Below are positions 4,435 to 42,622 of a DNA stretch of 64,000 nucleotides, piece by piece. The notes under the pieces were generated by a model. The model had not been told where the DNA came from, ran no database searches, and saw only the letters and a program-made list of their open reading frames with translations. This DNA comes from Acidobacteriota bacterium (GTDB lineage Bacteria; Acidobacteriota; UBA6911). How positions within the stretch are numbered: position 1 is the first letter of the stretch; every line of letters starts with the position of its first letter. Position numbers and translations under genes: made by a program. Location of the stretch: positions 559,219 to 623,218 of the forward strand of contig CBDFLD010000023.1 of assembly GCA_965249005.1 (NCBI GenBank), written 5' to 3'.

Positions 4435-4441
4435 GTCGGAT

Positions 4442-14590: not shown

Positions 14591-14682
14591 CTGCTCGCGG
14601 ATCTGCTCTTATGCGCGTAACTTAACAAATCGCCAAGAACCACGTTTTCAGGCTGTACAATGCAGTTACGTTCCCAAGCGAC

Positions 14683-14737
14683 TGGCGCGTTGCGCCAGTC
14701 CGAAGTGACCGGCGCAACGTGCCGGTCAGACGCTGAC
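14683..14737 (+). promoter_or_regulatory. cluster of overlapping, mutually exclusive hairpins in the leader of the GHMP kinase gene
   Basis: Hairpins: TGGCGC-GTT-GCGCCA (14683-97); TTGCGCC...GGCGCAA (14690-14717); GACCGGC-n7-GCCGGTC (14707-27); GTCAG-ACG-CTGAC (14725-37). The last ends 6 nt before ATG 14744. Confidence 0.3.
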
Positions 14738-14743
14738 CGCCCC

Positions 14744-15787: not shown

Positions 15788-15806
15788 CGCTCCCGTCACT
15801 AGTCCG

Positions 15807-22461: not shown

Positions 22462-23484
22462 ATGACGAAAGAAACTCCTACCGCCTTCATCACCGGCATC
22501 ACCGGCATGGTGGGCTCGCATCTGACGGACTTTCTGCTGGCCCACACCGACTGGGAAATCTTCGGCCTCTGTCGGTGGCGTAGTCCGCTCGACAACCTGG
22601 CGCATTTGATTCCCAGAATCGAAAGGAAGGAGCGCGTACAGCTCCTGTACGGAGATCTCAACGACTTCAGCTCCTTGGCCACCGCGATTGCGCGCAGCAA
22701 GCCCGACTATGTCTTCCATCTGGCGGCACAAAGCTACCCGCAAACCAGTTTCTCCGCCCCACTGGAAACCTTGGAAACCAACATCTTGGGCACCTGTCGA
22801 TTGCTCGAGACCATCCGATCTCAACCTGGTTGTGACCCTGTGGTGCACGTTTGCGCATCGTCGGAAGTCTTTGGCAGAGTCCCGAGCGACAGATTACCGA
22901 TTCACGAAGAGTGTTCCTTTCATCCCGCATCGCCGTATGCCATCTCCAAGGTCGGGACAGACCTAATCGGCCGCTATTACGGTGAGGCCTACGGCCTCAA
23001 AGCGGTGACTACGCGGATGTTTACGCACACCGGTCCGCGGCGCGGAGATGTCTTCGCAGAGTCGACCTTCGCCAAACAGATCGCCCTGATCGAAGCCAGG
23101 CACGTGGAACCTGTGCTTCGGACCGGCAATCTGGAATCGTTGCGTACCTGGGCCGACGTGCGGGACGCCGTGCGCGCCTATTACCTGCTGGTGACCACGA
23201 ATCCGGTTCCAGGGGAGTATTACAACATTGGAGGGACGTACTCGTGTACCGTCGGCGAGATGCTCAAGGTGCTGCTCTCGTACTCCAAGGTGCCGAATAT
23301 TGAAGTCAAGCAGGATCCGGATCGCCTTCGTCCACTGGACGCGGATCTTCAGGTTCCCGACACCACCAAGTTCATGGCGAAGACCGGATGGAAACCCGAG
23401 ATTCCTTTCAAGCAGACGATGCAGGACTTGCTGAATTACTGGCGCGATCGTATTCGATCCGGCCAGAAGTTCTTGACCCGTTGA
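22462..23484 (+). CDS. gmd: GDP-mannose 4,6-dehydratase
   Basis: AFITGITGMVGSHL, the YAISK catalytic tetrad region (SPYAISKVGTD), and a TTRMFTHTGPRRG motif characteristic of short-form Gmd. 340 aa. Confidence 0.65.
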   Translation: MTKETPTAFITGITGMVGSHLTDFLLAHTDWEIFGLCRWRSPLDNLAHLIPRIERKERVQLLYGDLNDFSSLATAIARSKPDYVFHLAAQSYPQTSFSAPLETLETNILGTCRLLETIRSQPGCDPVVHVCASSEVFGRVPSDRLPIHEECSFHPASPYAISKVGTDLIGRYYGEAYGLKAVTTRMFTHTGPRRGDVFAESTFAKQIALIEARHVEPVLRTGNLESLRTWADVRDAVRAYYLLVTTNPVPGEYYNIGGTYSCTVGEMLKVLLSYSKVPNIEVKQDPDRLRPLDADLQVPDTTKFMAKTGWKPEIPFKQTMQDLLNYWRDRIRSGQKFLTR

Positions 23485-23548
23485 ACCTCTGACGGGCCTC
23501 CACCGATGGACTCCTAAAGATTACCCTGGGGCGGACGATGAGAGCATC

Positions 23549-23570
23549 AACGGCCTTCGGCTGTTTTTTT
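23549..23570 (+). terminator. weak candidate rho-independent terminator after gmd
   Basis: Short hairpin (AACGGCC-UUC-GGCUGUU with one G-U pair) running into a T7 tract at 23564-23570. It lies in the 110-nt gap before the regulator gene. Confidence 0.3.
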
Positions 23571-23594
23571 CGAGACCTCGTGCTGATTGGATGA

Positions 23595-24278
23595 GTGACC
23601 ATAATGGCTAAGCGGGCTTCTGAAAACCTATACATACGCTCCCCCAAGCGAAATCTCCTCTCCATTCTCAACGCTCTGAGCTCGAATCCGAACCTGACTC
23701 AGGCATCCCTGGCTGAGCTCTGTGATCTATCGGTAGCGATGGTCAACAACTACCTGAAGGAGCTCGACTCCGCAGGGGTAATCGAATATCGTCGCAAAAG
23801 TCTTCGTGTGATCTCCTATCACTTGACGCCGGCCGGAAAGCGCAAGCTCACGGAGGTGCAACAGGACCTGCTGGGTGAAATGATTGGCTTTTACTCGGAA
23901 ACCAAGTCGTGGCTCCTGAACTCGATCGTGGAGCAAGCCGGAAGCCTGCAGCGTGTGTTGCTCTTTGGCACGGGAGAGCTGTGTGAACTGGCTCTCCATG
24001 CGCTGGAATCCGAAGGGATCAAGGTCATGGGGATCTGCGACGAAGCGCCTGACCGGATCGGGCAGGAGTGGTGCGGTCGAGAAATCCTGAACCCCGCGCA
24101 GATTCGATATATCGCCCCGGACGCCGTGGTTATCGTGGATGTTGCCCGGACCGTTGAGATTTACGCCAAGCAACAGCACCTCTTGAGCTCGGGCATTGCC
24201 CTGGTGCGTCTCGACGGGCACCCCTCGGAAGCACCCGCCAGCATCCAGGAAGAAGAACCGACCATGTCCCTCGTCTAG
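23595..24278 (+). CDS. winged-helix (MarR-like) transcriptional regulator fused to a NeuD-N-like Rossmann domain
   Basis: N-terminal wHTH (LTQASLAELCDLSVAMVNNYLKELDSAGVIEYRR) and C-terminal RVLLFGTGELCELALHALESEGIKVMGICDEAPDRIGQEW...AVVIVDV. GTG 23595 or ATG 23604. Confidence 0.5.
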   Translation: MTIMAKRASENLYIRSPKRNLLSILNALSSNPNLTQASLAELCDLSVAMVNNYLKELDSAGVIEYRRKSLRVISYHLTPAGKRKLTEVQQDLLGEMIGFYSETKSWLLNSIVEQAGSLQRVLLFGTGELCELALHALESEGIKVMGICDEAPDRIGQEWCGREILNPAQIRYIAPDAVVIVDVARTVEIYAKQQHLLSSGIALVRLDGHPSEAPASIQEEEPTMSLV

Positions 24279-24519
24279 CCCCGCCCCCCGTTCCTTCCCC
24301 GCCTGCTTCACCCCCCTCTCCTGTTTTCGCGGCAAGGTCCTGCGGTCTCGAAAACGAATTCCAAGAAAACACTACTTTGCAACTCCGGCGGGATCCGTTC
24401 GGGACCCACCCATGGATCTTTGTGGTCATCGAAGCGGGGCAAATCAAACAAAGAAAGTTCTCAACTTTTGGCGAAGCTGTGACGAAAACTAGTACACGCC
24501 AACATGGAGCGCCAGATTA

Positions 24520-24756
24520 ATGAACAACAAACTGAAAAGTCTCATTGCTGATCTGTTCAAGTGCGACGTAAGCGATCTAACCGATGATACGGGACCGGGC
24601 GATATCCCCGGATGGGACTCCCTGGGTCATGTGACGCTAATGGCCGAGATTCAAAAGCAGTTAGGGACTCACGTGCCGGTGGAAGACGCGATCGAAGTCG
24701 AGTCTATCGCCGATCTGGCCAGTCTCTTAGAGCAGCTTCAGGGGCAAGTGACGTGA
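24520..24756 (+). CDS. acyl carrier protein
   Basis: 78 aa, acidic, with a GWDSLGHVTLMAEI phosphopantetheine-attachment DSL motif. Confidence 0.7.
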   Translation: MNNKLKSLIADLFKCDVSDLTDDTGPGDIPGWDSLGHVTLMAEIQKQLGTHVPVEDAIEVESIADLASLLEQLQGQVT

Positions 24757-25520
24757 AGATCGCCGGCAGGAACATCGTCATTACGGGCGGTGCCTCCGGT
24801 CTCGGTTTTGCGTTTGGCGAACAGCTCTATCGGCTACAGGCGCGCGTGTGGTCCTTGGACCGGAATCAACACAGCATTGCAGCCGCAATGGCGGCCCGGG
24901 AAACGAATGGTAGTCACCGCGGCAAACTCGAGTTTCTCTGCTGTGACGTAGGAGACGAAGCTCAGGTCATCGAGACGGTTGCAAGGATCGAGTCGGATTC
25001 AGGAGGAATCGATGTCCTGATCAACAACGCAGCCGTCCTCAGAGACCAATCCCTGGTCAGCCGGCTCCGGAAGAAAATCAAGCAGCACTCCCTCGAAGAC
25101 TGGAACGAAACCCTGCGAAGCAACCTTACCGGGCCCTTCCTGATGACCCGCGAGGTGGCGTCGGTCATGATTTCCGCCAAGCGTCCCGGCATCGTCGTTA
25201 ATATTTCATCCATCTCACGGGCAGGCAACGCGGGCCAGAGCGCGTACTCCGCCAGCAAGGCAGGAATCGACGCACTGACGGCTACCTGGGCTCAGGAGCT
25301 CGCCGTCTACCGCATCCGTGTAGTCGGCCTCGCCCCGGGATTCGTAGAGACCCCCATGACCGAGAGGATCCCGGCACTTTTCTTGGAAGCCATCCGGCAA
25401 AAAAGTCCACTCAAGAGGTTTGGCACCCTGGGTGAGTTCGGGCACACGATACAGTACATCATCGAGAACGACTATCTTCACGGCAAGGTGTTGGAGCTCG
25501 ACGGTGGCCTGCGCTTCTAG
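24753..25520 (+). CDS. short-chain dehydrogenase/reductase (3-oxoacyl-ACP reductase FabG-like)
   Basis: GTG start overlapping the ACP stop (GTGA). ITGGASGLG cofactor motif, NNAA, and the S...YSASK catalytic triad. Confidence 0.7.
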   Translation: MKIAGRNIVITGGASGLGFAFGEQLYRLQARVWSLDRNQHSIAAAMAARETNGSHRGKLEFLCCDVGDEAQVIETVARIESDSGGIDVLINNAAVLRDQSLVSRLRKKIKQHSLEDWNETLRSNLTGPFLMTREVASVMISAKRPGIVVNISSISRAGNAGQSAYSASKAGIDALTATWAQELAVYRIRVVGLAPGFVETPMTERIPALFLEAIRQKSPLKRFGTLGEFGHTIQYIIENDYLHGKVLELDGGLRF

Positions 25521-25545
25521 CCACAGTGTTTCGCCGAACAGGAAA

Positions 25546-26964
25546 ATGTCGACATCAAAAGAAGTTGCCAGAGCAGCCCTATTTGTTTCCTACCACTTCC
25601 CTCCGTGTACCAGCATCGGAATGCGCCGAACTCTACGTTTTGTCCGCGGTATCGGAACGCTGGGGTGGCGTCCGGTCATTCTGACGGTCCGGAACCAGGA
25701 TTACCTGCGAGAGCCCACCGAGGAGATCGCTTGTGATCACATACCCGAGACAGCATCGGTCTACCGGACGCGAGTGAGGCGGCCGCTGGAGCTCGCGCTC
25801 TGCCTGCGCGACCGCTGGCGCCGGCTCACGCGATCCAAAAACCACAGTTCAGGCCAGCAGGCGTCCGGCGCCCAGGGCGACCCGGCTTCCAGTCCTGGCG
25901 CTCGGTCCTGGGTCCAGCGCTGGATCGACCCATGGTTTAGCACCCCGGATGCACAGGTTGGCTGGCTCCCATCGGCGGTGTGGAAGGGTTGGCGCGCGAT
26001 CGGCCCCGAGGGTGTGGCCGTCATTTACAGTAGCGGCCCTCCCTACAGCGCACATTTGATCGCATGGGCGCTGAAGAAGCTTTCGGGCCGCCCCTGGGTG
26101 GCCGACTTCAGGGATCCGTGGAGCCGCCGCCCCTGGGATCAGGATATTGTCAACCGCACGCCCCGCTACCGGGTTCAGGTATGGATGGAAAGAGTGGTCG
26201 TTCTCGCGGCCGACACCCTCATCAGCAATACCCGTGCAATGGGCGAGGATTTTCGCGATCGCTATCCGGACGAGCCGCGGGACAAATTCGTCGTCATCAC
26301 AAACGGCTACGACCCGGAGACGTTGCCAAAGCCAACCCGGGAACCGTCGCAGCAGACCTTCAACATCACGCATACCGGAGCCATCTACGGACGCCGAGAT
26401 GCGAGGCCCATCATCCGCGCCCTGGCCCAGATTCGTGATGCCGGGAACATCCAGCCCGGATTCTTGAATCTGAAGCTCGTGGGCAAACTGGAGGCAGAAG
26501 CCGAGGTCCAGGCGATGATCCAGTCTCTGGATCTGGCTGATTGGGTGACCATTGTTCCTGAGGTCTCCTTCCAGGAGAGCATCCGGTATCTGGCCCGTTC
26601 CCAGGTTTTGCTCGTTTTGCAGCCGGATGCGCCCCTTCAGATACCTGGAAAATTGTTCGAATACATTTATCTCAAAAAGCCGATTCTAGCATTGACGGGG
26701 GAAGGAGCGACGGCCGAGATCATCCGTCAATACAGGCTGGGGGAGGTAGTACCGCCGGATGACCCCGAACGCATCGCAGGGGCCATTGCCCAGCTTTACC
26801 AAGACTCTCACGAGAGTCGCGTCGGGCCGGACGAGTCCGCCCTCAGAGATTTTCATACAGCCACCCTGACGGCCGAGCTGGTATCGGTTTTCGAGTCCGT
26901 GGCCGCGTCGCAACGCAAACCGCTCGTGAGTCCAGCTCCTGAGAAAGTAGTGGAGAATCGATAA
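25546..26964 (+). CDS. family 4 (GT-B fold) glycosyltransferase
   Basis: GT4-like: N-terminal acceptor domain and C-terminal ...E(Y/F)xxxKPILA... donor-binding region (LFEYIYLKKPILALTGEGA). Confidence 0.55.
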   Translation: MSTSKEVARAALFVSYHFPPCTSIGMRRTLRFVRGIGTLGWRPVILTVRNQDYLREPTEEIACDHIPETASVYRTRVRRPLELALCLRDRWRRLTRSKNHSSGQQASGAQGDPASSPGARSWVQRWIDPWFSTPDAQVGWLPSAVWKGWRAIGPEGVAVIYSSGPPYSAHLIAWALKKLSGRPWVADFRDPWSRRPWDQDIVNRTPRYRVQVWMERVVVLAADTLISNTRAMGEDFRDRYPDEPRDKFVVITNGYDPETLPKPTREPSQQTFNITHTGAIYGRRDARPIIRALAQIRDAGNIQPGFLNLKLVGKLEAEAEVQAMIQSLDLADWVTIVPEVSFQESIRYLARSQVLLVLQPDAPLQIPGKLFEYIYLKKPILALTGEGATAEIIRQYRLGEVVPPDDPERIAGAIAQLYQDSHESRVGPDESALRDFHTATLTAELVSVFESVAASQRKPLVSPAPEKVVENR

Positions 26965-28097
26965 TGGCAAAGTTGAAGCTGAGCTTCCCTTCCTATCAGC
27001 AACCGAGCATGGTCACCTTCGGAAGCGGCTCGATCCGCACCCTGGCGGAATGCGCCCCGCTGAAGGATAGCGCGATCTTCCTCAGCGGCCGGGAGGAGGT
27101 CCGCAACGTGGTTGAGCGGAGCTTGAGCAAGCGTGGCATAGACCTCGGAGATGCTCCCGTACTCGTCAAGCCCGCCGGAGAGCCGACGCTCGAAATGGTG
27201 AAATTGGGTGCAGCTTTCCTGAAAAAGCAACCCTTCCAGCGAGTGATCGGGATCGGGGGCGGCTCCGTGATGGACTGGTGCCGGTTGTCGTGGGCCGAGT
27301 CGGAAGAAATCCTCAAATTCGATGGCCAGCGCGCGCTGGTCGAAGGATCGGCGCCGAGAACCACGGAGCTGTGGCTGGTTCCCTCGACCTGCGGGACAGG
27401 CGGAGAAGCAGCCAATATTGCGGTCTTCAGCCACGAAGGCCGGAAGATCCCGGCCGTCTCACGGGCGTTCGTGGCAGACCGTGTCGTACTCGACGGCCAA
27501 TTTCTCTCGAGCGTCGGCCCGGCCGTCCTGGCCAACTCCCTTTGCGACGCTTTGAGCCATGCGATCGAAGCCTATGTGTCGATCCTTCCCTGTCCGCTGG
27601 CCAAGGAAGCAGCCGTATCGGCGCTGACGCTCATCTTCCGGCACTATACGGATGGCAGCCCGTCGCGAAACGACCGTCTGATGGAGGCAGGCTACCTTGG
27701 CGGGGTCGCCGCCGCCAACTGTTCGGTTGGGGCGATTCACGCTTTTGCTCACACAATCGCCGCATACGGCGTCTCCCACGGTCATGCCAACGCCCTCGGT
27801 CTCATTGCCGGCGTTTACTCCAATCAAGATGTGCCCGCGATGCAAGCACTCCTTGGCCGCTGCGGAGCCAGAACCATCGACGAGTTCATTGACCAGCTGC
27901 GGCCAATTGTCCAGACCGCGCTGTCGCGCGACCGCGACATGGAGCTGCTCCAAGCGCTCCGCGACCAATCGGCTCTGCGTCTGGTCAGCGAGCAGATGTC
28001 CGCGGACGTTTGTATGCGTTCGAGCCCCAGAGCGTTGGAACCGAAGGAAGTGCCGACCTTCCTGGAAAAGGTAGCCGAAACGGTCGAATGCCTATGA
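26964..28097 (+). CDS. iron-containing (group III) alcohol dehydrogenase / DHQS-like superfamily
   Basis: GIGGGSVMDW glycine motif, CDALSHAIEAYVS and HAFAHTIAAYGVSHGHANA metal-binding His cluster typical of Fe-ADH. 377 aa. Confidence 0.6.
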   Translation: MAKLKLSFPSYQQPSMVTFGSGSIRTLAECAPLKDSAIFLSGREEVRNVVERSLSKRGIDLGDAPVLVKPAGEPTLEMVKLGAAFLKKQPFQRVIGIGGGSVMDWCRLSWAESEEILKFDGQRALVEGSAPRTTELWLVPSTCGTGGEAANIAVFSHEGRKIPAVSRAFVADRVVLDGQFLSSVGPAVLANSLCDALSHAIEAYVSILPCPLAKEAAVSALTLIFRHYTDGSPSRNDRLMEAGYLGGVAAANCSVGAIHAFAHTIAAYGVSHGHANALGLIAGVYSNQDVPAMQALLGRCGARTIDEFIDQLRPIVQTALSRDRDMELLQALRDQSALRLVSEQMSADVCMRSSPRALEPKEVPTFLEKVAETVECL

Positions 28098-29536
28098 AGA
28101 TTGCGACCCAGGAAGCGACAACACTCGATGCCATCGAGTCGGTCGACGGGACGGCCCTCGCACTGGTCGATAACTCAGATAGCCTTAGCTACGGGCAGAT
28201 GCGAGGCGCGGCGCGGCAGATAGCCTCACGGGTGCAGGAGCGTTACGGAACGGAGCAGTACATTCTCGTCCGGGCGACATCGGACGTGTGGTTCGTCACG
28301 TCGCTACTGGGCATCCTCTACAGCGGCAACACCCCCATCCCGGTGGACGAGCAAGCGCCGCTCTCCTCATTGAGCTATATGAAGGACAAGGCCGGAGCTG
28401 TCGACGTCATCGCTCCACTCCGCCCCGGCGAATTCGAGGCTCTCCCACCAACGTTCGAGCCCAATGACTCCAGGCCAGCCCTGATCCTTTTCACCTCCGG
28501 CACCACGGGTTTTCCAAAAGGTGTCATAATCTCTCATCAGAACCTCAGCCATTCCTGCCGCGCGATATCGAGCTATCTGGGTTACCCCGAACACCCCTCC
28601 GCGGCCGTCGTGCTCCCGTTGCACTACAGCTACGCGCTGCTGTCTCAGGTATGGTGCCAACTCTCGATCGGCGGATTGGTTCGTCTTTTTTCGAACTTCA
28701 AGAACCCCATCAAATTCAGTCGCGTCGCCAACGAGATGGGGCTGGAGACGTTCTGCGGCGTCCCGGCCACCTACAATGCCCTGGCGACGATTCACCACAT
28801 GAGCCCAATCGAGATGCCCGGCTTCCGGGTGCTCTGCTCCGCCGGAGCCGCCATGGACCGAAGCAAGTTCGGCGATATCAAGAAGATCTTCCCCAACGCC
28901 GTTTTCTTCAACAACTATGGCATGACGGAAGCCGCTCCACGGATCTCCTACATCCGTGAGGACGATCCCCGTTTCTTCGAGCCCACCTGCGGGCACCCCA
29001 TGGATGGGGTCCAGGTCAAGATCGTAGATCCCGAGACTCACGTGGATCTACCCGACGGCGAGCCTGGGATGCTGGTCGTCCGGGGGCCCAACATCACCCC
29101 TGGGTACCTGAACGACGAGAAGATCACGCAAGAGTCTTTCACCGCAGACGGGCATCTGATTTCCGGTGATGTCGCCTACAGCGAGAACGGCTATTTTTTT
29201 ATTTGCGGGCGTCACGACGACATCTTCAACGTGGGAGGAGAGAAAGTAGCTCCCCTCGAGATCGAGCGAGCGCTGCACAAGAACTCTGCCATTGAGGCCG
29301 CCGCCGTGAGCGGCCTGGCCGACGAGGCACGAGGGAAAATCCCGGTGGCCTTTCTGAAGTTGAAACAAGCCGCCTCGAGGCGAGACATCATGGGCGCGCT
29401 CGACGGCGAGCTGCCTCCGGTAAAGATCCCACAACGCTACTTCGAGGTCAGTGGTTTTCCCGTGACCTCCAATGGAAAGATACAGAGACGCAAGCTTTCC
29501 GTGGACGATTCCTTTGTCATCCGGGAGATTGTTTGA
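28088..29536 (+). CDS. AMP-dependent synthetase/ligase (acyl-CoA/acyl-ACP synthetase)
   Basis: LFTSGTTGFPKGV AMP-binding motif, YGMTE, and GDVAY...GR.DD..NVGGEKV.P.EIE C-terminal core. Confidence 0.65.
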   Translation: MPMKIATQEATTLDAIESVDGTALALVDNSDSLSYGQMRGAARQIASRVQERYGTEQYILVRATSDVWFVTSLLGILYSGNTPIPVDEQAPLSSLSYMKDKAGAVDVIAPLRPGEFEALPPTFEPNDSRPALILFTSGTTGFPKGVIISHQNLSHSCRAISSYLGYPEHPSAAVVLPLHYSYALLSQVWCQLSIGGLVRLFSNFKNPIKFSRVANEMGLETFCGVPATYNALATIHHMSPIEMPGFRVLCSAGAAMDRSKFGDIKKIFPNAVFFNNYGMTEAAPRISYIREDDPRFFEPTCGHPMDGVQVKIVDPETHVDLPDGEPGMLVVRGPNITPGYLNDEKITQESFTADGHLISGDVAYSENGYFFICGRHDDIFNVGGEKVAPLEIERALHKNSAIEAAAVSGLADEARGKIPVAFLKLKQAASRRDIMGALDGELPPVKIPQRYFEVSGFPVTSNGKIQRRKLSVDDSFVIREIV

Positions 29537-29537
29537 A

Positions 29538-30617
29538 ATGTTCTTGGACCGCGTGGCTCCCTACGGCTTGGATCCCGACCAAAAGCACTCCTATCTGTCC
29601 GGCCAGCTTCAGGCACTGCTCGAACATCACGAGAAGATGTGCGCGCCCTACGCCAACATCGTAGGGGACTGGCGGAAACATGATCAGACGGATCGAAACC
29701 AGATCGAGGACTACCCGTTTATTCCCGTCACGATCTTCAAGGAATATGACCTGAGATCGACCCAGGGGGAGGTCATGAGCCTTCAATCCTCGGCCACGAC
29801 TTCCGGCAACGCCTCAAAGATATACGTCGACAAGCCAACCCGGAAGCGCCAGACCATCTCAGCCAACAGAGTCCTGTCCAGCTTCGTCGGGAACGAGAAG
29901 CGTCCCTACCTGGTCTTCGACAGCGAGTCTACGGTTCGCGGAAGCGCCTCCATGGGGGCTCGCGGGGCTGCAATCCTGAGTCTGGCCCATCTCGCATCCG
30001 AATTTCATTTCATCGCCAGGGAGGAAGGCGGGCAGTTGTCTCTGGACGTCGACGCACTGGACGGTGCCCTGCAACGGATCGGACAAGAACCCTTCATTGC
30101 GTATGGGTTCACCTACATCCTGTATCAGATGCATCAGGAGCTTGCCCGCCAGGAACGGACGCTCCCGGTCGCCCATCCAGACTCGATGCTGCTGCACAGC
30201 GGGGGCTGGAAACGGCCGATTGATCTTGCGGTGGACAAGGAGACCTTCAATCGAACGATCTCCTCCGTATGGGGCCTTCGCGAGGAACAGGTGATCGACT
30301 TCTACGGTGCCGTCGAACAGATCGGCGTCCCGTATCCCGACTGTGCCGAGGGTTACAAGCATGTTCCATACTGGGCGGAGATCATCATTCGCAAGAGCGA
30401 CACACTCGAGCCTGCCGGGATTGGGGAAACCGGATTGATACAGCTGCTGAATTGCCTCCCCCTGTCGGCGCCCAACCACAGCGTCTTGACCGAAGACCTC
30501 GGGCAGTTGAGTCTCCTGGACGGATGCCGGTGTGGGCGACGAGGCAAGGCATTCGTTTTCATCGGCAGGGCTCCGCGCTCGGAGACGAGAGGATGCAGTG
30601 ACGTCACAAGACACTGA
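29538..30617 (+). CDS. LuxE-like acyl-protein synthetase
   Basis: 360 aa with a LuxE-family (PF04443-like) architecture: N-terminal YPFIPVTIFKEYDLRS...SSATTSGNASKIYVD and ACS-like C-terminal half. Follows the AMP ligase by 1 nt. Confidence 0.5.
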   Translation: MFLDRVAPYGLDPDQKHSYLSGQLQALLEHHEKMCAPYANIVGDWRKHDQTDRNQIEDYPFIPVTIFKEYDLRSTQGEVMSLQSSATTSGNASKIYVDKPTRKRQTISANRVLSSFVGNEKRPYLVFDSESTVRGSASMGARGAAILSLAHLASEFHFIAREEGGQLSLDVDALDGALQRIGQEPFIAYGFTYILYQMHQELARQERTLPVAHPDSMLLHSGGWKRPIDLAVDKETFNRTISSVWGLREEQVIDFYGAVEQIGVPYPDCAEGYKHVPYWAEIIIRKSDTLEPAGIGETGLIQLLNCLPLSAPNHSVLTEDLGQLSLLDGCRCGRRGKAFVFIGRAPRSETRGCSDVTRH

Positions 30618-31881
30618 GATTACGACTGCAGGCCCTAAAGGACCCGCCAACGGAGATCAATCCTACTCCGCTCTGCTCAGCGGACTGGGCGAGCGGCGGG
30701 AATCACCCAAAGCTCTATCGTTCGATGAGCGCCTCGCGGTGCTGGATGCCTTTTCCGACGCATTGCTGGAGCGAGGAAACACACTGATCGGGGCGCCCTT
30801 GCCCGGACTCCCTTTTCTGGCAGGGTTCCTGCGGCGCTCCAATCTCGAGAAGCTGGTATCCCGCCAGATTCCCAATCCGGAAGCGCTGCGTCGTTTTTGT
30901 TCCGTGGGCGAGCGCAAGAGTTTGCGTCTGGTCCCCAGGGGGATCGTCTGTCATTGGATCGCCGGCAACGTGCCGCTTCTGGGTATGTTCTCATGGGCCC
31001 TGAGCGCCTTGGCTGGAAACCTCAACGTCATTCGTCTCAGTACACGGCAGGACGACTTCATTACTCCGATCCTGAGTCACGTCGCGGAGCTATCCGAGGG
31101 CGGAAAACAGATGGTCGAGGAGACCGTGGTACTGCGTTTCGAGCGAGACAACCTCGCGGCACACGAGGACATGAGTAATATGGCCGACGTCCGCATTGCC
31201 TGGGGGGGACAGGAAGCTGTGGAAGCGATACGGGCGCTTCCGTGTCGCTGGACCTGCGAAGACATCGTTCTTGGCCCCCGAGCCAGTCTCGCGGTCGTCG
31301 ATCCGGCCCTGATGACGAAGGGAACTCTTTCCCGACTGGTGACCGATATCGTATTCTTCGATCAACTCGCGTGCAGTTCGCCTCAGTTGCTCTTCGTTCG
31401 CGGACGACCAGGAGAAAGCTCGTTTGATTCGTTTTTCGAGAGTTTCTGCGCGGCCTTCGCCACGCAATCCACGGCCATCCCGCGTCATCCACTTGATTTC
31501 GCGGAGACCTTTCAGATCCAGCTCGATCGAACCCGAATGTTGCTCGATCAGGGCAAGCTGTCTCGCGATCGACGCACCCAATGGACGGTTGCGGCCCGGG
31601 AGCAACCCCTGGGCTCGGTCGTCTGCGCCAACCGCTTCATTCAAGTGATTCCCGCGAGTCGATGGCAGGACGTGACGCGCCATATTCCCAACAACGTCCA
31701 GACCATCGTGACCTTGCTCTCCAAACAGGAGCACGAGCAGTTTACCGAGGAGGCGTCTCACCACGGGGTCTGTCGTTTTCCCCGACCCGGGGAGGGAAAT
31801 AATTTCGAAGATCCCTGGGATGGCGTGGCTCTGCTGGCCCGTCTCTGCCGCTGGGTGATCCGCAGCGACCCAAGAAGCTGA
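30598..31881 (+). CDS. LuxC-like acyl-CoA (acyl-protein) reductase
   Basis: LuxC family (PF05893-like): VCHWIAGNVPLLGMFSWALSALAGNLNVIRLS and an aldehyde-dehydrogenase-like fold. No ATG start; candidates are GTG 30598 or GTG 30532. Confidence 0.5.
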   Translation: MTSQDTEITTAGPKGPANGDQSYSALLSGLGERRESPKALSFDERLAVLDAFSDALLERGNTLIGAPLPGLPFLAGFLRRSNLEKLVSRQIPNPEALRRFCSVGERKSLRLVPRGIVCHWIAGNVPLLGMFSWALSALAGNLNVIRLSTRQDDFITPILSHVAELSEGGKQMVEETVVLRFERDNLAAHEDMSNMADVRIAWGGQEAVEAIRALPCRWTCEDIVLGPRASLAVVDPALMTKGTLSRLVTDIVFFDQLACSSPQLLFVRGRPGESSFDSFFESFCAAFATQSTAIPRHPLDFAETFQIQLDRTRMLLDQGKLSRDRRTQWTVAAREQPLGSVVCANRFIQVIPASRWQDVTRHIPNNVQTIVTLLSKQEHEQFTEEASHHGVCRFPRPGEGNNFEDPWDGVALLARLCRWVIRSDPRS

Positions 31882-31925
31882 GCGAGAGTCTCTCGCGAAG
31901 CATTTCCAATACGAGGAGCTCGATC

Positions 31926-33053
31926 GTGAGCCGTGACGCCAACCTCACCATGGAACCGGAACCGAAAGAGACCCGAAAACGCAAGGGCCTCTTTTTTTAC
32001 GATGCGTCCCTGGAATCGGAGATCTTCGCGCTTCAGGAAAGCGTCTATCCCCAGAGAAGAAAGGACTGGATCGCGCCCCGCTGGCGCTGGATGTTTGTCC
32101 GTTCGGCCGAACGATTGGGAATCCGACCTCTGGTCTGTGTCTATCGTAACGCCTCGGGGGTGGTGGCACATCAGGGAGTGATTCCCGTCAACCTGAGAGT
32201 GGCCGGATCGGAGCATTCCACGGGTTGGTTCGTCGAGACCATGACTTCGGACGCAGTCCGTGGAAAGCCGATCGGTCCGACGGTCATCCAGAAGACCCTG
32301 GAGTCGATACCGTTTAACCTATCCCTGGGCCAAACAGCGCAGATGCGCTCGATACAGTTCGCTCTTGGCTGGGAGCAGGTGGCGCCCCTCGAACATTACG
32401 CCCTCATCCTCAATGCCCGAAATGTGTTGCGCGGAAAGGGAATCCCCGCATTGAGCCACCTGGCACCCCTGGGGATGGGAGCAATGCAGGGCCTTCGACG
32501 ACGCCTGGGTAGACGCCGGCTGGACTGGTGCCCCTCGACCGAGGAAGTGGACCGCTTCGACTCACGCCACGATCTGCTCTGGGAGCGCGCGCGTGACGAG
32601 CATGCGTGTTCGGTCGTGCGGGATTCCTCATATCTCAACTGGAAGTACGTCGATCAGCCCGGTCAGGAATTCATTCGTCTGGAGGTCCGGAAGCGAGACG
32701 AGGTGGTTGCCGTTGCCGTCCTGCAAATCCTCGAGTCGTCTCCGGCCTATGGGTACCGGCGGGGATTCGTAGTCGATTTGATTACTTCCTTCTCGACCCC
32801 GGATACGGTGTGGGCTGCGCTGGAGGCAACCGCACAGGCTTGTGAAGAGCGGAAAGTCGACCTGCTCACTTTCTATTTGATAAGCGCGAAACTAGCCGCC
32901 GCGGTCCGAAGCTTTGGATTCTTTCGCCGAGAACCGACACGGGTCTTTCTGGTTGCTCCCGGAGACCTTTCCCAGCAGATGCGTGAGACGGTCCTGTCGC
33001 CCGAAAGCTGGTTGATCACAATGGGCGATTCCGATATCGATCGTCCCTGGTAG
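31926..33053 (+). CDS. FemAB/CelD-like GNAT-superfamily acyltransferase
   Basis: 375 aa; GTG start 7 nt after an AGGAG RBS. The C-terminal half has a GNAT-like fold (RRGFVVDLITSF...LLTFYL) resembling the BioF2/FemXAB-like acetyltransferases common in EPS clusters. Confidence 0.45.
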   Translation: MSRDANLTMEPEPKETRKRKGLFFYDASLESEIFALQESVYPQRRKDWIAPRWRWMFVRSAERLGIRPLVCVYRNASGVVAHQGVIPVNLRVAGSEHSTGWFVETMTSDAVRGKPIGPTVIQKTLESIPFNLSLGQTAQMRSIQFALGWEQVAPLEHYALILNARNVLRGKGIPALSHLAPLGMGAMQGLRRRLGRRRLDWCPSTEEVDRFDSRHDLLWERARDEHACSVVRDSSYLNWKYVDQPGQEFIRLEVRKRDEVVAVAVLQILESSPAYGYRRGFVVDLITSFSTPDTVWAALEATAQACEERKVDLLTFYLISAKLAAAVRSFGFFRREPTRVFLVAPGDLSQQMRETVLSPESWLITMGDSDIDRPW

Positions 33054-33095
33054 GACCGTGGTAAAACCGTCGTAAAACCGGGAACGTCCCTTTCT

Positions 33096-35659
33096 TCATC
33101 GGAAGTTCTCAATAAGCATGATGTCTGAGCTCACGGTCATGTCGCTAAAGGCGTAGTAGATCCACTTCTCATTGGCGGTCACAGCGATACTTCCTGTCGA
33201 GAGTTCTACGGACCCTGCCTGTCCATACACTTCCTTTTTTTCTTTCGTGTTCAAATCCAGATAGTGAATCGAGAACCCTCCTCCACGCCTATTCTTCCCG
33301 TAGTAGAGTCGATCCCCCACGATATCGAACCCACCAGCGCCAACTACTCTTTCTTCCAGGATTGGCACCTCCTGGCCACCCTCAACAGGAACGCGCCAAA
33401 TATTTTGGTCCTTCTGATAGTAAAGGTACTGTCCAGCTTTCGATGCACGGGGCCGGCCGCCTCCGTCTTGTGTCACCTGTCTAGCTCCTTCTCCCTCGGG
33501 AGACATCCTCCAGATTTGCCCGGTACCGCTACGACCCGAGTTGAAATAGATCCAGCGACCATCATGGGACCAACTCGGACTACCGTCGGATTCAGGATTG
33601 TTGGTCAGACGTTTCGGCTCTCCTCCTTCGGCATCCACGACGTAAACTTCAGAGTTGCCCTCGATAATCGAGGAAAACGCGATCCTTTGGCTGTTGGGAG
33701 ACCAATCGGAGCGGTCACTGATTTGGCGCAACCGGGTCAACTGAAAGGGTTGACCCGAGCCATCCGCGGGGGATGTCCAAATCTCGGCATTCCCGAACCT
33801 GTCCGATGTGAAAACGATCTTCTGGCCATCAGGGGACACCCTCACTTTGTAATCTCCGTACATCGGATTCGTGCGGATGATTGTTGCGGGTCCCGCTTTT
33901 TTTGTAGTCTGGGTTGTTTGGACCGGAGACGCGCCATATGTCAGCTCCCTCCGATCGAAGATCGACGTACACCAGACGGTCCTCACGGACACACGGGCAG
34001 AACGCTCCAATCCCGACACCACAGACGACTCTCGGCTTTCCGCCCTTGACCGATATTCGATAAAGGCGCGGATGACGAAGACCTCCATCTGTCGCTGCTG
34101 AGAAAATGATCTCTCGTCCGTCGTGTGTCCAGGTCGGGCAATCGAGTGAAAAGTATTGTTCAGAAGTTACGGGCTGGGGGTCGCCGCCTTCCACCGATTG
34201 GACCCAAAGGTCATTAACAGCCATGGCTGTTCCCCCGTTGCGAACAAAAGCCACCTGCGTTCCATCCGGCGAAAACGAAGGCCAGTAATCGCCCAGCGTC
34301 GATGTAGCTTGAGGATCTGTCAGGGGTTTTCTATCCCTGTTTTGCAGGGAGATCAGGACGATTCGGCGGCGTCCGTCTTCTGGGGACTTCTCTGCCTTGG
34401 CGATCCACTTCCCGTCCGGCGACCAGGAGATGGGTCCGTTCACATCGACGAAATGAAAACTTCCGGATACATGCTTCCCTAGCACGTCCGTGACTTTCTG
34501 CGGCTGCCCTCCCAAGGAGGGGATGGTGTAGAGCGTTGCCTTCGTCTCGGTATCCCGAACAAAAGCGAACTGTGTGCCGTCCGGGGACCAAGCTGCCCAT
34601 CCTTCGGCCTCCGGACTACTGACCACAGGGAGCGTTGCCGTTCCCTCGCCGATCTGCGTGACGTAGATATCCCAGTCGTTACTGACGCCTCTCGCGCCGT
34701 AGAGAATCTGGTTGCCGTCGGGCGAAAGCTGTGGAAACCTTTTCTCTCCCCCGTCAGTCGTAATGGGTCTGATCTCGGCGGGCTCTGCGGGAAGATCCAC
34801 AACCGTGTCCGTCTCGGGCCAGTAGTAGATTCCGGCAGCTACGGCAGCCAGTACAACCAAAGCCCCACCTATCCACAGTGCTGCTCCCAGACGCTTCTTG
34901 GGTCTTGTCTCTACCTCATACCGCGGTATCGATACTCCAGTCAAAGAATCGCGCTTCAGCCTCCTCAGATCTGCGAGGAGATCCTTTGCCGACTGATACC
35001 TCAGCTTCGCATCCTTCTCCAGGGCCTTCTCGATCAGCCCCACCACGTCATCCGGTAACTCCGGCTTGATCCGTACAAGCGACACCGGCACCTTCGTCAG
35101 GATCTCGTTGAACACTACGCCTGTTGTATTTCCCTTGAAGGGTTGCGTCCCCGTCGCCATCTCGTACAACACCACCCCAAAAGAAAACAGATCCGTCCGA
35201 GAATCGAGATCTTGTCCTTTCACCTGCTCCGGTGACATATACGCTGCCGTCCCTACCGTCGATCCCGGACTCGTCAGATAGGTCTCTGTCGCCGTGGATG
35301 CAGAGTCCGACGAGGTTTCCGTCGACTTAGCCAAGCCAAAGTCCAGGATCTTTACCTGTCCACGTTCGGTGATCCTTCAGGGTCTGCCCTTCCAGATACT
35401 GCATCGTGATGAAGGGTTGACCCTCGTGCTCTCCAATATCGTAGATGGCGCAGATATTGGGGTGATCCAGTGCGGAAGCTGCGCGTGCTTCACGCTGGAA
35501 CCGTTCCAGGGCATGGCGGTCCTTGGCCAAGCTTTCTGGCAGAAACTTCAAGGCGACATGACGGCCCAGGCGGGTGTCTTCGGCTTTGTAGACCACACCC
35601 ATGCCTCCACCGCCAAGTTTGTCCAGGATTCTGTAATGGGAGATCGTTTCGTCGATCAT
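33096..35659 (-). pseudogene. Ser/Thr protein kinase - TM - TolB/PD40 beta-propeller, paralog 1 (disrupted)
   Basis: N-terminal [39 protein letters not shown]. Relative to the intact paralog at 46233, a 128-bp deletion (~35330-35345) removes the HRDIKPAN catalytic loop. A +1 frameshift in the T7/A7 run 33897-33903 splits the propeller. Confidence 0.55.
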
Positions 35660-35724
35660 GGTCGTAGGCGCAGTGTCGCTCACGGATAGAGCGACCTACA
35701 GGTGTCCTGAGATTCGTATGAAGA

Positions 35725-38357
35725 TCATCGGAAGTTCTCGATCAGGTTGATGTCTTGGCTCACGGTCGTATCTTTAAAGGCGTAGTAAATCCACTTCTCA
35801 TCGGGGGTCGCCGAGATACTATTCGTGTAGAGCGATACGGACCCTTCCTTTCGAAGTAGCAGGGTGTCACGTCCGGTCTTCAAATTGCGATAGTGAAGCG
35901 AGAACCCTCCCCCACCTCTGTCCTTTGCGTAGTAGAGTCGATCCTTCACGATATCAAACCCCGAACGGGCTCTTTCGTCCAAGACCTTCCGCTCCTCGCC
36001 ACCCTCAACAGGAACTCGCCAAATACTTCCGTCCTTCTTCTGATAGTAGATGTACTCTCCATTCGCCGATGCACGTGGGCTGCCCCCTCCCTTTCGCGTC
36101 ACCTGGATTGCCTCCCCTCCCTCCGCTGATATCTTCCAGATCTGACCGCCTGAAGCGAAAGAGATCCAGCGACCATCATGGGACCAACCCGGACTGACTT
36201 CGGTAGCAGGACTAGTGGTCAGACGTTCCGGTTTTCCTCCTTCGGCATCCACGACATAAATATCCGGTTTGCCCTCCACGATTGAGACAAAAGCGATTCT
36301 CTGACCGTTGGGAGACCAATCGGGGCGAGCGCCATCTTGGTTGGCCAACCTAAATGAACCCGAGCCATCCGCTTTGGAGGCCCAGACCTGTAAGTCACCG
36401 CCCCTCGATGATGTGAAGGCAATCTTCTGGCCATCGGGGGATACCCTGACTTGATGATCCATGTACATTGGACTCGTGTAGATGATGCGCTCCGGGGCCG
36501 GCTTTTCCTCGTTGTTTGGGTTGTTTGGACCAGGGGTGCGCCATATCTCGTTGCCTTTCCCCACGCTTTGCACAAACACGAGGCGATCCCCGCGGACACA
36601 CGGGCCCACGGCTCCAAGCCCCGCATCGGTTACGATTTCCGGCTTCCCGCCAGAAACAGGTACCCGAAAAAGGTGATTGCCAGCTTGTCGACCTTTCCAT
36701 GCCGAAAAGATGATCTGTTGGCTGTCACGTGACCACGTAGGGCAACGGATGTTTCTGTATTGCTCAAAAGTCAACCGCTCGGCCTTGCCACCTTCCACCG
36801 ATTGGATCCAAAGGTCGCCATAAAAAAACCCACGCCCCGAGCGGACAAAAGCCACTTGCGTTCCATCCGGTGAAAACGACGGCGCGGTATCACCACCAAT
36901 TGCAGCGTCGGGAGGATCTGTCAGGTCTGTTTTGTCCCCTGTTTGTGGGGAGATCAGGACAATTCGGGATTGTCGATCGTCCGGATACGCTCTGCCGCGG
37001 CGATCCAGGTCCCGTCCGACGACCAGGATAGTCCGTTCTTTGGGCCTACGAGGTCGGAAACTTTACCCGGATGCCCTCCCAAGGAGGGAATGGTGTAGAG
37101 CGCTGCCTTCTCTTCGGTCTCCCGAATAAAAGCCAATTTTGTACCGTCCGGGGACCAGACTGACGCTCTTTCAGTCTCCGAGCTACTGACTACAGGGAGC
37201 GTTGCCGTTCCCTCGCCGATTTGCGTGACGTAGATATCCCAATTGTCACCCTCGACTCTTGCGTGATAGGCCACCTGGGTACCGTCGGGTGAAAGTTGGG
37301 GGAATCTCCTCATTCGAGCGTCCGTGGTGATGGGCCTGATCTGGATGGGTTCCGTGGGAAGATCCGCAACCGTGTCCGTCTCGGGCCAGTAGTAGATTCC
37401 GGCAGCTACGGCAATTGCCAGTACGACCAAAGCCCCACCTATCCACAGTGCCGCTCCCGGACGCTTCTTGGGTCTTGCCTCTACCTCATAACGAGGTATA
37501 GAGACTCCCGTCAGAGAGTCCCGCTTCAGCCGGCTCAGGTCCGCGAGGAGATCCTTCGCCGACTGATACCTCAGCTTCGCATCCTTCTCCAACGCCTTCT
37601 CTATCACACGTATCACGTCATCCGGCAACTCCGGCTTGATCCGCACAGCTGACGTTGGCACCTTCGTCAATATCTCGTTGAACACAACCCCGGTTGTCGC
37701 CCCCTTGAACGGTTGCGTCCCCGTCGCCATCTCATACAACACTACCCCAAACGAAAACAGATCCGTACGAGCATCGAGTTCCTGTCCCTTGACCTGCTCG
37801 GGTGACATGTACGCTGCCGTCCCCACCGTCGATCCCGGACTCGTCAGATTTGTTTCTGTCGCCATGGACGCAGAGTCCGACGACTTCTCCGTCGATTTTG
37901 CCAAACCAAAATCCAGGATCTTTAGCTGCCCACGTTCTGTGATGAAGATATTCGCCGGCTTGATATCCCGGTGCACGATCGCCTTGGAGTGCGCTACCTC
38001 CAGCGCGTCGGCAATCTGAATCCCCAGATCCAGCAGCTCTTCTGTTTCTATTGGCTTGCTCTCGATCCGCTCCTTCAGGGTCTGCCCATCGAGATACTGC
38101 ATCGTGATGAAGGGTTGACCCTCATGTTCTCCAATATCGTAGATGGCGCAGATATTGGGGTGATCCAGAGCAGAGGCTGCCCGTGCCTCCCGCTGGAACC
38201 GTTCCAGGGCGTGTCGATCTTTGGATAGGCTCTCGGGAAGGAACTTCAAGGCGACGTGGCGGCCCAGGCGGGTGTCTTCGGCCTTGTAGACCACGCCCAT
38301 GCCGCCACCGCCAAGTTTGTCGAGGATTCTGTAATGGGAAATAGTCTCGTCGATCAT
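35725..38357 (-). pseudogene. Ser/Thr protein kinase - TM - TolB/PD40 beta-propeller, paralog 2 (single frameshift)
   Basis: Kinase, TM and propeller are complete, but a -1 frameshift near 36975-36985 separates ORF 36954-38381 from the frame open to 35725. This could also be a sequencing error. Confidence 0.45.
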
Positions 38358-38397
38358 GGTCGTAGGCGCAGTGTCGCTCACGGATAGAGCGACCTAC
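38358..38397 (-). promoter_or_regulatory. conserved 40-nt structured leader of STK-TolB paralogs (copy 2)
   Basis: GTAGGTCGCTCTATCCGTGAGCGACACTGCGCCTACGACC immediately 5' of the ATG. It is identical to the leader of paralog 1 (35660-35699) and contains the hairpin GTCGCTC-n7-GAGCGAC. Confidence 0.35.
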
Positions 38398-39944: not shown

Positions 39945-39947
39945 GAA

Positions 39948-42437: not shown

Positions 42438-42622
42438 TGTCGCCTCCGAAATGAAACGAACAGATTCAGCAAACCTGAAGGATCTCGCCGGCGAAGCATG
42501 GACGCCTGGACCTGCCGATTCCCCGTTCCAGACGGATAATCGACGGCTCGAGTAAGAGAAGCTTGTTCTTTCCAGTTTACCCATCCGATCCTCAACCTTC
42601 AATCGTTTCTCGCGCTGCCGAT

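Follow-up and report, generated by a model that had tools for sequence, protein, structure and literature searches.

Within a 64,000-nucleotide stretch of the genome of an Acidobacteriota bacterium (assembly GCA_965249005.1, contig CBDFLD010000023.1, positions 559,219 to 623,218; hereafter the window), eight genes at positions 24520–33053 encode an acyl carrier protein (ACP), a FabG-like short-chain dehydrogenase/reductase (SDR), a family 4 glycosyltransferase (GT4), an iron-containing alcohol dehydrogenase (Fe-ADH), an acyl-adenylating ligase, LuxE-like and LuxC-like proteins, and an eighth protein designated here by its open reading frame (ORF) as ORF8. We propose, with evenly balanced confidence, that these genes constitute a single unit in which a short hydroxyacyl group is made on the dedicated ACP and is then placed on a sugar within the polysaccharide that the upstream glycan cluster specifies. 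The initial annotation of this DNA described the genes as a candidate pathway to a fatty aldehyde or fatty alcohol glycoconjugate. That interpretation is partly supported: the genes appear to encode an acyl decoration pathway, the product of which is probably short and hydroxylated instead of fatty.

In the ORF list and translations of the window, the eight ORFs all lie on the forward strand and are tightly packed, as had been annotated, the tightest junction being an overlap of 20 nt and the loosest a gap of 44 nt (Table 1). Family membership was assessed using Pfam profiles with their gathering cutoffs, NCBIfam models with their equivalog cutoffs, and sequence matches in the PDB; Pfam confirms seven of the eight assignments made initially. 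The ACP matches PP-binding (PF00550, E 2.9e-9), and its translation contains the motif GWDSLGH with the phosphopantetheine-attachment serine (DSL). The SDR matches adh_short (E 3e-47) and KR (E 1e-12), carries the cofactor motif TGGASGLG and the catalytic motif YSASK, and scores 262 bits with PRK08217, under the cutoff of 298. The GT4 is recognized by Glyco_trans_1_4 (E 3e-11) and Glyco_trans_4_4 (E 1e-9). The Fe-ADH matches PF00465 (E 1.7e-21, 77 bits versus a cutoff of 31.3) and ADH_Fe_C (E 9e-16, 58.5 bits versus 27) and has the metal-ligand motifs DALSHAIEAY, HAFAHT, and HGH; its closest solved structures are the alcohol dehydrogenase domain of AdhE, 4-hydroxybutyrate dehydrogenase, lactaldehyde reductase, and KdnB, relatives whose polar C2–C4 substrates weakly favor a small polar acid here as well. 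The ligase matches AMP-binding (E 5e-56) and AMP-binding_C (E 8e-12), with the P-loop SGTTGFPKG, the motif YGMTE, and the C-terminal lysine of the ANL superfamily. Its top solved match over the full length is the adenylation domain of LgrA (196 bits), followed by 4-coumarate-CoA ligase and oxalate- and malonyl-CoA ligases; it appears nearer to carrier-loading adenylation domains and ligases of short or dicarboxylic acids than to FadD or FAAL, which lends weak support to the same conclusion, and it is the putative ACP-loading enzyme.

Membership in the LuxE and LuxC families, on which the initial annotation had staked its case, holds. The LuxE-like protein scores 176.6 bits with PF04443 (cutoff 24.9, E 1e-51), residues 28–378 of its ORF spanning profile positions 24–385 of 391, and the LuxC-like protein scores 218.6 bits with PF05893 (cutoff 21, E 1.7e-64). 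The C-terminal cysteine of the former is kept (ETRGCS versus EQKGCS in LuxE, PDB 7xc6_E), and we take it to be the acylation site, as in Vibrio and Photobacterium LuxE; the active-site cysteine of the latter is likewise kept (DQLACSSPQ versus DQQACFSTQ in LuxC, PDB 7xc6_A). With the NCBIfam pair NF052244/NF052251, which represents the true LuxE and LuxC equivalogs, the scores are 52.8 bits (cutoff 550) and 82.3 bits (cutoff 750), respectively. Because these values are far under the cutoffs, the two proteins are not orthologs of the luminescence enzymes. Neither the LuxD acyltransferase nor the luciferase LuxAB has a match among the profiled ORFs of the window (nearly all those of at least 200 aa between positions 303 and 51000), and Pfam and NCBIfam detect no ketosynthase, thioesterase, or LuxD-type transferase in the ORFs of the module.

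The one family assignment that fails is that of the eighth gene, annotated as FemAB/CelD-like (PF13480). ORF8 has no match in Pfam or NCBIfam, even at E ≤ 1, and no sequence match in the PDB. An AlphaFold (AF2) model computed from 44 homologs (pLDDT 93, pTM 0.90) predicts two halves with the fold of Gcn5-related N-acetyltransferases (GNAT) in one chain; as modeled, ORF8 belongs with the tandem GNATs of Eis/N-myristoyltransferase type. Its fold matches include Eis and glucosamine N-acetyltransferases, which are N-acyltransferases of amino sugars and aminoglycosides, as well as N-myristoyltransferase. Fem proteins are absent from its top 60 structural matches, and a FemAB/CelD-like identity (PF13480, PF02388) is ruled out, there being neither a profile match nor a Fem-type structural neighbor. 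A first search yielded at least 232 homologs, nearly all labeled hypothetical, and a profile run against 1.84 billion cluster representatives yielded 372 at E ≤ 1e-30, 4456 at E ≤ 1e-10, and, for the wider tandem-GNAT superfamily, 9766 at E ≤ 1e-3.

A scan of one genome per species using two exact ORF8 peptide patterns identified 71 loci (numbered with the prefix L), all labeled as metagenome-assembled genomes (MAGs); because the patterns were exact and only two in number, the absence of isolate genomes is only suggestive. Comparison of the loci by tblastn and ORF clustering reveals most or all of the set Fe-ADH, ligase, LuxE, LuxC, ACP, SDR, and ORF8 in 20 non-redundant loci of Acidobacteriota/Vicinamibacterales, Planctomycetota, and Gammaproteobacteria, and in ∼14 of the 20 all seven are detected in that fixed order, at 40–81% identity to the window proteins. 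The recurrence of the same gene set in 20 non-redundant loci indicates that the arrangement is beyond chance, and the loci lie amid glycan genes, supporting the initial view of one functional unit within a glycan cluster. The ACPs of these modules are 53–81% identical to that of the window, and the SDR gene is invariably directly behind the ACP gene. The locus closest to the window, L039, has the order ACP-SDR-ORF8-GT4-FeADH-ligase-LuxE-LuxC at 54–76% identity. A GT4 gene directly follows ORF8 in many loci: the ortholog group of the window GT4 occurs in six further loci, in five of them (L001, L029, L039, L045, L062) just downstream of ORF8 or within one or two genes of it and in L054 merely present, and a second GT4 group lies behind ORF8 or its fused form described below in L009, L010, L013, L032, and L034. 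Other neighbors of the discrete genes encode family 2 glycosyltransferases (GT2), further GT4s, AsnB-like amidotransferases, flippases, Wzy-like proteins, sulfatases or sulfotransferases, UDP-sugar dehydrogenase, and beta-helix proteins, a complement typical of exopolysaccharide (EPS) loci.

The second architecture in which ORF8 occurs bears most directly on its function. In 32 other loci ORF8 is the C-terminal domain of a 2,600–3,370-aa polyketide synthase (PKS), and this fusion appears to be the strongest evidence that ORF8 uses an ACP-borne acyl group and that the group is short and polyhydroxylated. The domain order, by Pfam and NCBIfam, is (MaoC dehydratase)-(SDR)-FkbH-ACP-ketosynthase (KS)-acyltransferase (AT)-ketoreductase (KR)-ACP-ACP-ORF8, and the FkbH domain scores 301–324 bits with TIGR01686 (cutoff 147). 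Examples are found in L012 (1280–11104), L021 (3296–11071), and L043 (947–11059), with ∼29 further loci; tblastn detects FkbH in 27 of the 32, KS in 29, and the MaoC-SDR pair in 23, the rest being truncated by contig ends. Fusions of ACP-ORF8 or KR-ACP-ORF8 on short contigs are most likely C-terminal fragments of the same protein. The hosts are MAGs of Nitrospirales, Desulfobacter, Pirellulales, Vicinamibacterales, and Gemmatimonadaceae, and the genes occupy polysaccharide-type loci in no fewer than five phyla. The glyceryl unit that an FkbH domain loads onto ACP is derived from 1,3-bisphosphoglycerate, and in bryostatin-type loading modules the preceding dehydratase-ketoreductase (DH-KR) pair is thought to turn glyceryl into lactyl-ACP. 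By analogy, one malonyl extension followed by ketoreduction should give 3,4-dihydroxy- or 3,4,5-trihydroxypentanoyl-ACP (C5). The position of ORF8 behind the last ACP marks it as the putative off-loading transferase, and ORF8 may represent a family of ACP-dependent off-loading acyltransferases for which Pfam and NCBIfam have no model. LuxE and LuxC were not found by tblastn within 10 kb in the PKS-ORF8 loci, and the window, where ORF8 is free-standing, has no tblastn match to the FkbH, KS, or AT domains of the fused proteins.

These observations can be combined into one scheme. The presence of two adenylating enzymes fits a substrate with two carboxyl groups, one of which is reduced while the other is kept for transfer, and in a module that has no ketosynthase a small two-carboxyl acid provides the simplest scheme that uses every part. 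The LuxE-like protein would adenylate one carboxyl of a small keto- or hydroxy-di-acid (C4–C6) and take the acyl group onto its C-terminal cysteine. The LuxC-like protein, by the lux mechanism and its conserved cysteine, would accept the thioester on that residue and reduce it to the aldehyde, which the Fe-ADH would convert to the primary alcohol. The logic of acid to aldehyde to alcohol that the initial annotation had assigned to these three enzymes is thus retained, with the catalytic cysteines conserved. The ANL ligase would adenylate the other carboxyl and load the ACP, and the FabG-like SDR would reduce the keto group of the ACP-bound chain to a hydroxyl. ORF8 would then move the (di)hydroxyacyl group from the ACP, on which its dependence is indicated by the domain fusion in its relatives, to an acceptor, most likely an amino group carried by a sugar or by the glycan under construction, and the GT4 would incorporate or extend the modified residue. 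Candidate acids are oxaloacetate or malate, which would give a dihydroxybutanoyl group, and 2-oxoglutarate or 3-oxoadipate, which would give longer groups. A DctM-like dicarboxylate transporter gene (ORF cluster c26), two genes upstream in gammaproteobacterial loci, was considered as support for a di-acid and discarded, its Pfam score being 20.6 against a cutoff of 23.8, with no NCBIfam match.

The neighbors of related loci provide an indication of the acceptor. In Planctomycetota a gene resembling carbohydrate esterase family 4 (CE4; ORF cluster c10, with a PF01522 match at E 7e-7 that passes the Pfam cutoff) precedes the discrete genes in L005, L008, L015, and L020, with at most one (unassigned) ORF between. 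The same gene directly precedes the PKS gene in L028, L038, L047, L061, and L068 and closely follows it in L035, with glycosyltransferase genes downstream of the discrete genes or the PKS; weaker relatives stand behind distant ORF8 paralogs in L070, L072, L075, and L076. This shared neighbor suggests that acyl-ACP can be supplied by either the six discrete genes or the PKS, the one standing in for the other. A further suggestion from it is deacetylation followed by N-acylation, by which the N-acetyl group of a sugar is swapped for another acyl group, in agreement with the N-acyltransferases of amino sugars and aminoglycosides among the fold relatives of ORF8. We advance only tentatively, as a possibility on the doubtful side of even, the generalization that the ORF8 family consists of ACP-dependent off-loaders that graft short polyhydroxy acyl groups onto polysaccharides, with the interchangeable suppliers being either an FkbH-primed PKS of one extension module or a discrete set of LuxE, LuxC, Fe-ADH, ligase, ACP, and SDR that would convert a di-acid of central metabolism to dihydroxyacyl-ACP.

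The glycan cluster of the window is less easily reconciled with an amino acceptor. It contains an HddA-like GHMP kinase gene (138 bits, NCBIfam), an HddC/ManC-like guanylyltransferase gene, a gene for an aldo-keto reductase, four GT2 genes, and a gene for a NanM-like O-methyltransferase, and every enzyme match in it falls short of the equivalog cutoff. The Gmd and Fcl-like genes of the initial annotation are upheld at the family level; as equivalogs they are not, the Gmd-type 4,6-dehydratase scoring 172 bits against a cutoff of 415 and the Fcl-like SDRs 144–163 bits against 500. The genes suggest a pathway to a GDP-linked 6-deoxy sugar that is also O-methylated, and the nucleotide sugar may be a GDP-heptose or 6-deoxyheptose derivative instead of GDP-fucose. 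For this organism, candidate acceptors are a hydroxyl group and an amino sugar synthesized elsewhere.

Several points weigh against the proposed short hydroxyacyl decoration. The profiled ORFs of the window include no sugar aminotransferase (no DegT) and no CE4 deacetylase, so that no acceptor amine is evident, and the apparent dedication of the cluster to a GDP-linked, 6-deoxy, O-methylated sugar makes an O-ester or another acceptor possible. Canonical LuxC and LuxE use C14 acids, and ORF8 is as close in its likeness to N-myristoyltransferase as to Eis. The lactyl logic applied to the DH-KR-FkbH portion of the PKS is carried over from bryostatin-type loading modules. The discrete SDR, which may act on a beta-keto, an alpha-keto, or an aldehyde group, was rejected as an ortholog of the PKS KR, to which it does not align; its match is to the N-terminal SDR of the PKS and is weak (21.6% identity, E 2e-5). 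Finally, the pathways of Vibrio cholerae O1 and of flagellin glycosylation islands, compared below, are themselves proposals made from sequence.

In the pathway favored by the initial annotation, LuxE, LuxC, and Fe-ADH make a fatty alcohol that the GT4 glycosylates, or the GNAT transfers a fatty acyl group, and the product is an alkyl or acyl glycolipid or lipoglycan. Such a product is consistent with the membership of the two proteins in families whose characterized members use C14 acids, with their conserved catalytic cysteines, with the GT4 as a conserved partner of the module, with the resemblance of ORF8 to N-myristoyltransferase, and with the 'liposugar' that the flagellin-island papers also guessed. 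Nevertheless, we consider a fatty product unlikely. A mono-acid, once reduced, leaves the ligase, ACP, SDR, and GNAT without a substrate, so that two unrelated products would be needed, and access to fatty-acid synthesis would call for a ketosynthase, a thioesterase, or a LuxD-type transferase, none of which the module encodes. The affinities of the Fe-ADH and ligase favor small polar acids, the PKS-fused relatives of ORF8 build C5 polyhydroxy chains, the dihydroxyacyl group of V. cholerae O1, the sole relative whose product is known, has four carbons, and the LuxE-like and LuxC-like proteins fall far under the cutoffs of the true enzymes. Together with the two adenylating enzymes, these affinities and C5-making relatives favor a short polar chain, and what survives of the earlier claim is the idea that the acyl group ends on a sugar or polymer.

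It is improbable that the glycan neighborhood is incidental and that ORF8 makes an N-acyl amine, an N-acyl amino acid, or a small hybrid metabolite. The tandem-GNAT superfamily is broad, as the 9766 cluster representatives attest, structural relatives of ORF8 acylate peptides and small amines, fusion to a PKS is typical of secondary metabolism, and no amino-sugar pathway was found in the window. However, both the discrete and the PKS forms occur repeatedly, in unrelated phyla, amid genes for GT4, GT2, flippase, Wzy-like, AsnB-like, sulfotransferase, and CE4 proteins; a GT4 gene lies within the window operon, with overlapping codons, and directly behind ORF8 in many other loci. An equally poor prospect is a pathway run oxidatively, in which the Fe-ADH oxidizes a small diol or hydroxy compound and the LuxC-like protein, as an acylating aldehyde dehydrogenase, forms a thioester that passes to the ACP (directly or via LuxE or the ligase) and on to ORF8: the pairing follows the logic of AdhE, Eut, and Pdu (AdhE and EutG-type proteins being among the matches of the Fe-ADH), LuxC belongs to the aldehyde dehydrogenase superfamily with its cysteine kept, and the replacement of a PKS by discrete genes as the acyl-ACP source would be explained, but neither the ATP-dependent LuxE-like acyl-cysteine synthetase nor the second adenylating ligase would be needed, the terminal CH2OH of the V. 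cholerae product is what reduction predicts, and LuxC is not known to work oxidatively in vivo.

Table 1. Positions of the module genes and of other annotated features in the window.
Feature	Positions	Strand	Remarks
ACP	24520–24756	+	78 aa; likeliest start
FabG-like SDR	24753–25520	+	4-nt overlap with ACP stop (GTGA)
GT4	25546–26964	+	25-nt gap after SDR
Fe-ADH	26964–28097	+	1-nt overlap with GT4
ANL ligase	28088–29536	+	10-nt overlap with Fe-ADH
LuxE-like	29538–30617	+	1-nt gap after ligase
LuxC-like	30598–31881	+	20-nt overlap with LuxE-like
ORF8	31926–33053	+	375 aa; 44-nt gap after LuxC-like
wHTH (MarR/HTH_24-like) regulator	23595–24278	+	Pfam HTH_24, E 2.4e-11
HddA-like GHMP kinase, HddC/ManC-like guanylyltransferase, Gmd-type dehydratase, three Fcl-like SDRs	12007–16613, 22462–23484	+	under equivalog cutoffs
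NanM-like sugar O-methyltransferase	9957–11018	+	in cluster; under equivalog cutoff
E1 alpha/beta-like thiamine-diphosphate enzyme genes	3259–5485	+	head of same-strand glycan cluster
Split transketolase N/C genes	5230–7307	+	head of same-strand glycan cluster

The gene preceding the module encodes a winged helix-turn-helix (wHTH) protein, which possibly regulates it and which matches the MarR_EPS model TIGR04176 weakly (26.9 bits, cutoff 88). The two are separated by 241 nt, and GGAG precedes the first ATG of the module. A terminator-like hairpin with a T-run at 23549–23565 (+), which separates the Gmd-type gene from the wHTH gene, suggests that the wHTH gene and the module are transcribed apart from the upstream glycan genes; a promoter scan of 23400–33400, uninformative for this kind of organism, gave no sigma-70-like site. 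The gene downstream of the module is convergent, and the G+C content of the module is unremarkable (0.57–0.61).

Two further sets of observations concern relatives. In three gammaproteobacterial loci (L036, L044, L065; ∼11060–13940), genes for a second AMP-ligase and an ornithine/diaminopimelate-type pyridoxal phosphate (PLP) decarboxylase come after ORF8, and a genuine PF13480 (FemAB-like) gene lies upstream; the set resembles accessory genes of exosortase A (XrtA, PEP-CTERM) EPS loci, in which the module can apparently be embedded. Such a context was rejected for the window, where the ligase scores 151 bits with TIGR03098, the model of the PEP-CTERM/XrtA exosortase EPS set, and does not reach the cutoff of 592, and where neither the second ligase nor the PLP decarboxylase is present. 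A tblastn search of plasmids with the LuxC-like protein and ORF8 returned distant matches only (22–30% identity); Azospirillum lipoferum 4B was rejected as a carrier of the module, its LuxC-like and ORF8-like genes being on different plasmids. A locus on a plasmid of Rhizobium anhuiense (L078) contains a split transketolase, an LpxA-like transferase, a small ORF, and AMP-binding, DegT, LuxE-like, LuxC-like, and SDR genes, and together with the genes at 3259–7307 of the window it hints at a link of thiamine-diphosphate enzymes to acyl or branched-sugar decoration.

Elsewhere in the window, the adjacent ORFs 38397–39944 and 40512–42881 (−) match complementary halves of the outer-membrane beta-barrel profile PF25183 (positions 365–838 and 1–351) with ∼570 nt between them, and 38397–42881 may be a disrupted gene for a TonB-dependent-type receptor or contain a sequencing frameshift. 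Genes for Ser/Thr protein kinases fused to PD40/WD40-like beta-propeller repeats lie at 33096–38381 (−) and 44788–48893 (+). ORF 33829–35334, which overlaps ORF 33096–34088, matches the C-terminal half of the kinase only (profile positions 154–256) and may be a fragmented kinase copy.

Non-luminous homologs of LuxC and LuxE in glycan clusters, as in cholera O1 and in the flagellin islands of Aeromonas, Pseudomonas, and enterobacteria, have been annotated for ∼30 years without biochemistry. The module is a compact, conserved, seven- or eight-gene version of such clusters, the natural swap of a PKS for the discrete genes constrains its product, and it supplies a transferase family, uncharacterized and absent from current profile libraries, that has 372 cluster representatives at E ≤ 1e-30. 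In pathogens, serotype, phage receptor function, and immunogenicity are determined by acyl decorations of this kind, which probably also adjust the physical behavior of exopolysaccharides in the environment. If the proposals made here are true, a 'polyketide-polysaccharide hybrid' decoration would be widespread in uncultured Acidobacteriota, Planctomycetota, Nitrospirota, Desulfobacterota, and Gammaproteobacteria, and the LuxC/LuxE genes of O-antigen and flagellin glycosylation clusters would acquire a testable function.

Among known systems, one of the two closest parallels is the wbeK-L-M-N-O region (rfbKLMNO; VC0248–VC0252) of V. cholerae O1, assigned to the N-acyl (S)-2,4-dihydroxybutyryl (tetronate) group of perosamine, in which wbeL is annotated as a ligase with an ATP-binding domain, wbeM as an Fe-ADH, and WbeN as an 825-aa LuxC/LuxE fusion, with a transferase in addition; wbe mutants lose or alter the O antigen or lose phage sensitivity. 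The proposal of the tetronate pathway is credited to Morona et al. (1995, Gene 166:19), and the pathway reportedly includes a dedicated ACP. The scheme given above for the window follows the reasoning advanced long ago for V. cholerae O1. Co-located ACP, AMP-ligase, Fe-ADH, LuxC, and LuxE functions are common to V. cholerae O1 and the window, a likeness at the level of Pfam families and annotations, as is a surrounding glycan cluster with a gene of GDP-mannose-4,6-dehydratase type; in the V. cholerae product a C4 dihydroxyacyl group is amide-linked to a 6-deoxy amino sugar. The window differs in having LuxC and LuxE as separate genes, in its FabG-like SDR and internal GT4, and in its ORF8 tandem GNAT as the transferase, and its profiled ORFs include neither the perosamine synthase that V. 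cholerae has nor another sugar aminotransferase.

The flagellin glycosylation islands of Aeromonas group II and Enterobacteriaceae contain an ACP-FabG-ligase-LuxE-LuxC cassette (98 Aeromonas strains and ∼71–80 enterobacterial strains), the product of which has been guessed in print to be a 'liposugar'. The same five families thus stand side by side amid glycan-building genes in both settings; however, the islands occur in linkage with genes for pseudaminic acid and flagellin, whereas the profiled ORFs of the window include no pse, maf, or flagellar families, and the Fe-ADH and ORF8-type GNAT of the window are not reported for the islands. The flagellin glycan of Aeromonas piscicola AH-3 (PMC7874193) includes, as published, a pseudaminic acid derivative of 376.14 Da along with an unidentified unit of 102 Da. 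A dihydroxybutanoyl unit, C4H6O3, has a mass of 102.03 Da, and its exchange for one acetyl group of Pse5Ac7Ac gives 316.13 − 42.01 + 102.03 = 376.15 Da; the 376.14-Da and 102-Da units may be products of the cassette beside pseH, although the agreement is a coincidence of mass only.

The fatty-acid reductase LuxC-LuxD-LuxE of the lux system (7xc6 being the only solved LuxC-LuxE complex) shares homologous LuxC and LuxE folds and the acyl-bearing cysteines with the window, and by analogy a similar thioester relay from synthetase to reductase is likely. The window differs from lux in the absence of LuxD, LuxA, and LuxB and in the coupling of ACP, ligase, SDR, Fe-ADH, and GNAT, and the substrate of the LuxE-like and LuxC-like proteins is probably not myristate. 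In Flavobacterium psychrophilum, wfpC-G (an ACP, two KS, a KR, and a PglD-like transferase) are predicted to place an N-3,5-dihydroxyhexanoyl group on Qui2NAc4N. A dedicated ACP and KR, a short hydroxyacyl group, an O-antigen or glycan cluster, and transfer from ACP to sugar, the last as proposed here for the window, are common to both systems, but in F. psychrophilum ketosynthases assemble the chain and a hexapeptide-repeat enzyme carries out the transfer, whereas the window has no KS and has instead the LuxE/LuxC/Fe-ADH branch and a tandem GNAT. Deacetylation followed by N-acylation from acyl-ACP is the order of events in Nod factor synthesis (NodB/NodA) and lipid A synthesis (LpxC/LpxD). 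The related loci resemble these in having a CE4-type deacetylase gene beside that of an acyl-ACP-dependent transferase, with the N-acetyl exchange that this implies; they differ in that the transferase folds are unrelated and the acyl group is probably short and hydroxylated, and the window itself has no CE4 gene.

The initial annotation had found no described counterpart of the gene arrangement, and the V. cholerae and flagellin-island parallels revise this statement, which stands for the exact module: the literature searched contained no seven- or eight-gene module with an ORF8 tandem GNAT, and no description of PKS-ORF8 proteins or of FkbH-PKS/GNAT proteins in EPS loci. The module thus probably belongs to a known kind of system, the ACP-dependent decoration of glycans with short hydroxyacyl groups within a glycan cluster, to which the fixed seven-gene set with Fe-ADH and ORF8, the ORF8 family itself, and its PKS-terminal form appear to be new additions.

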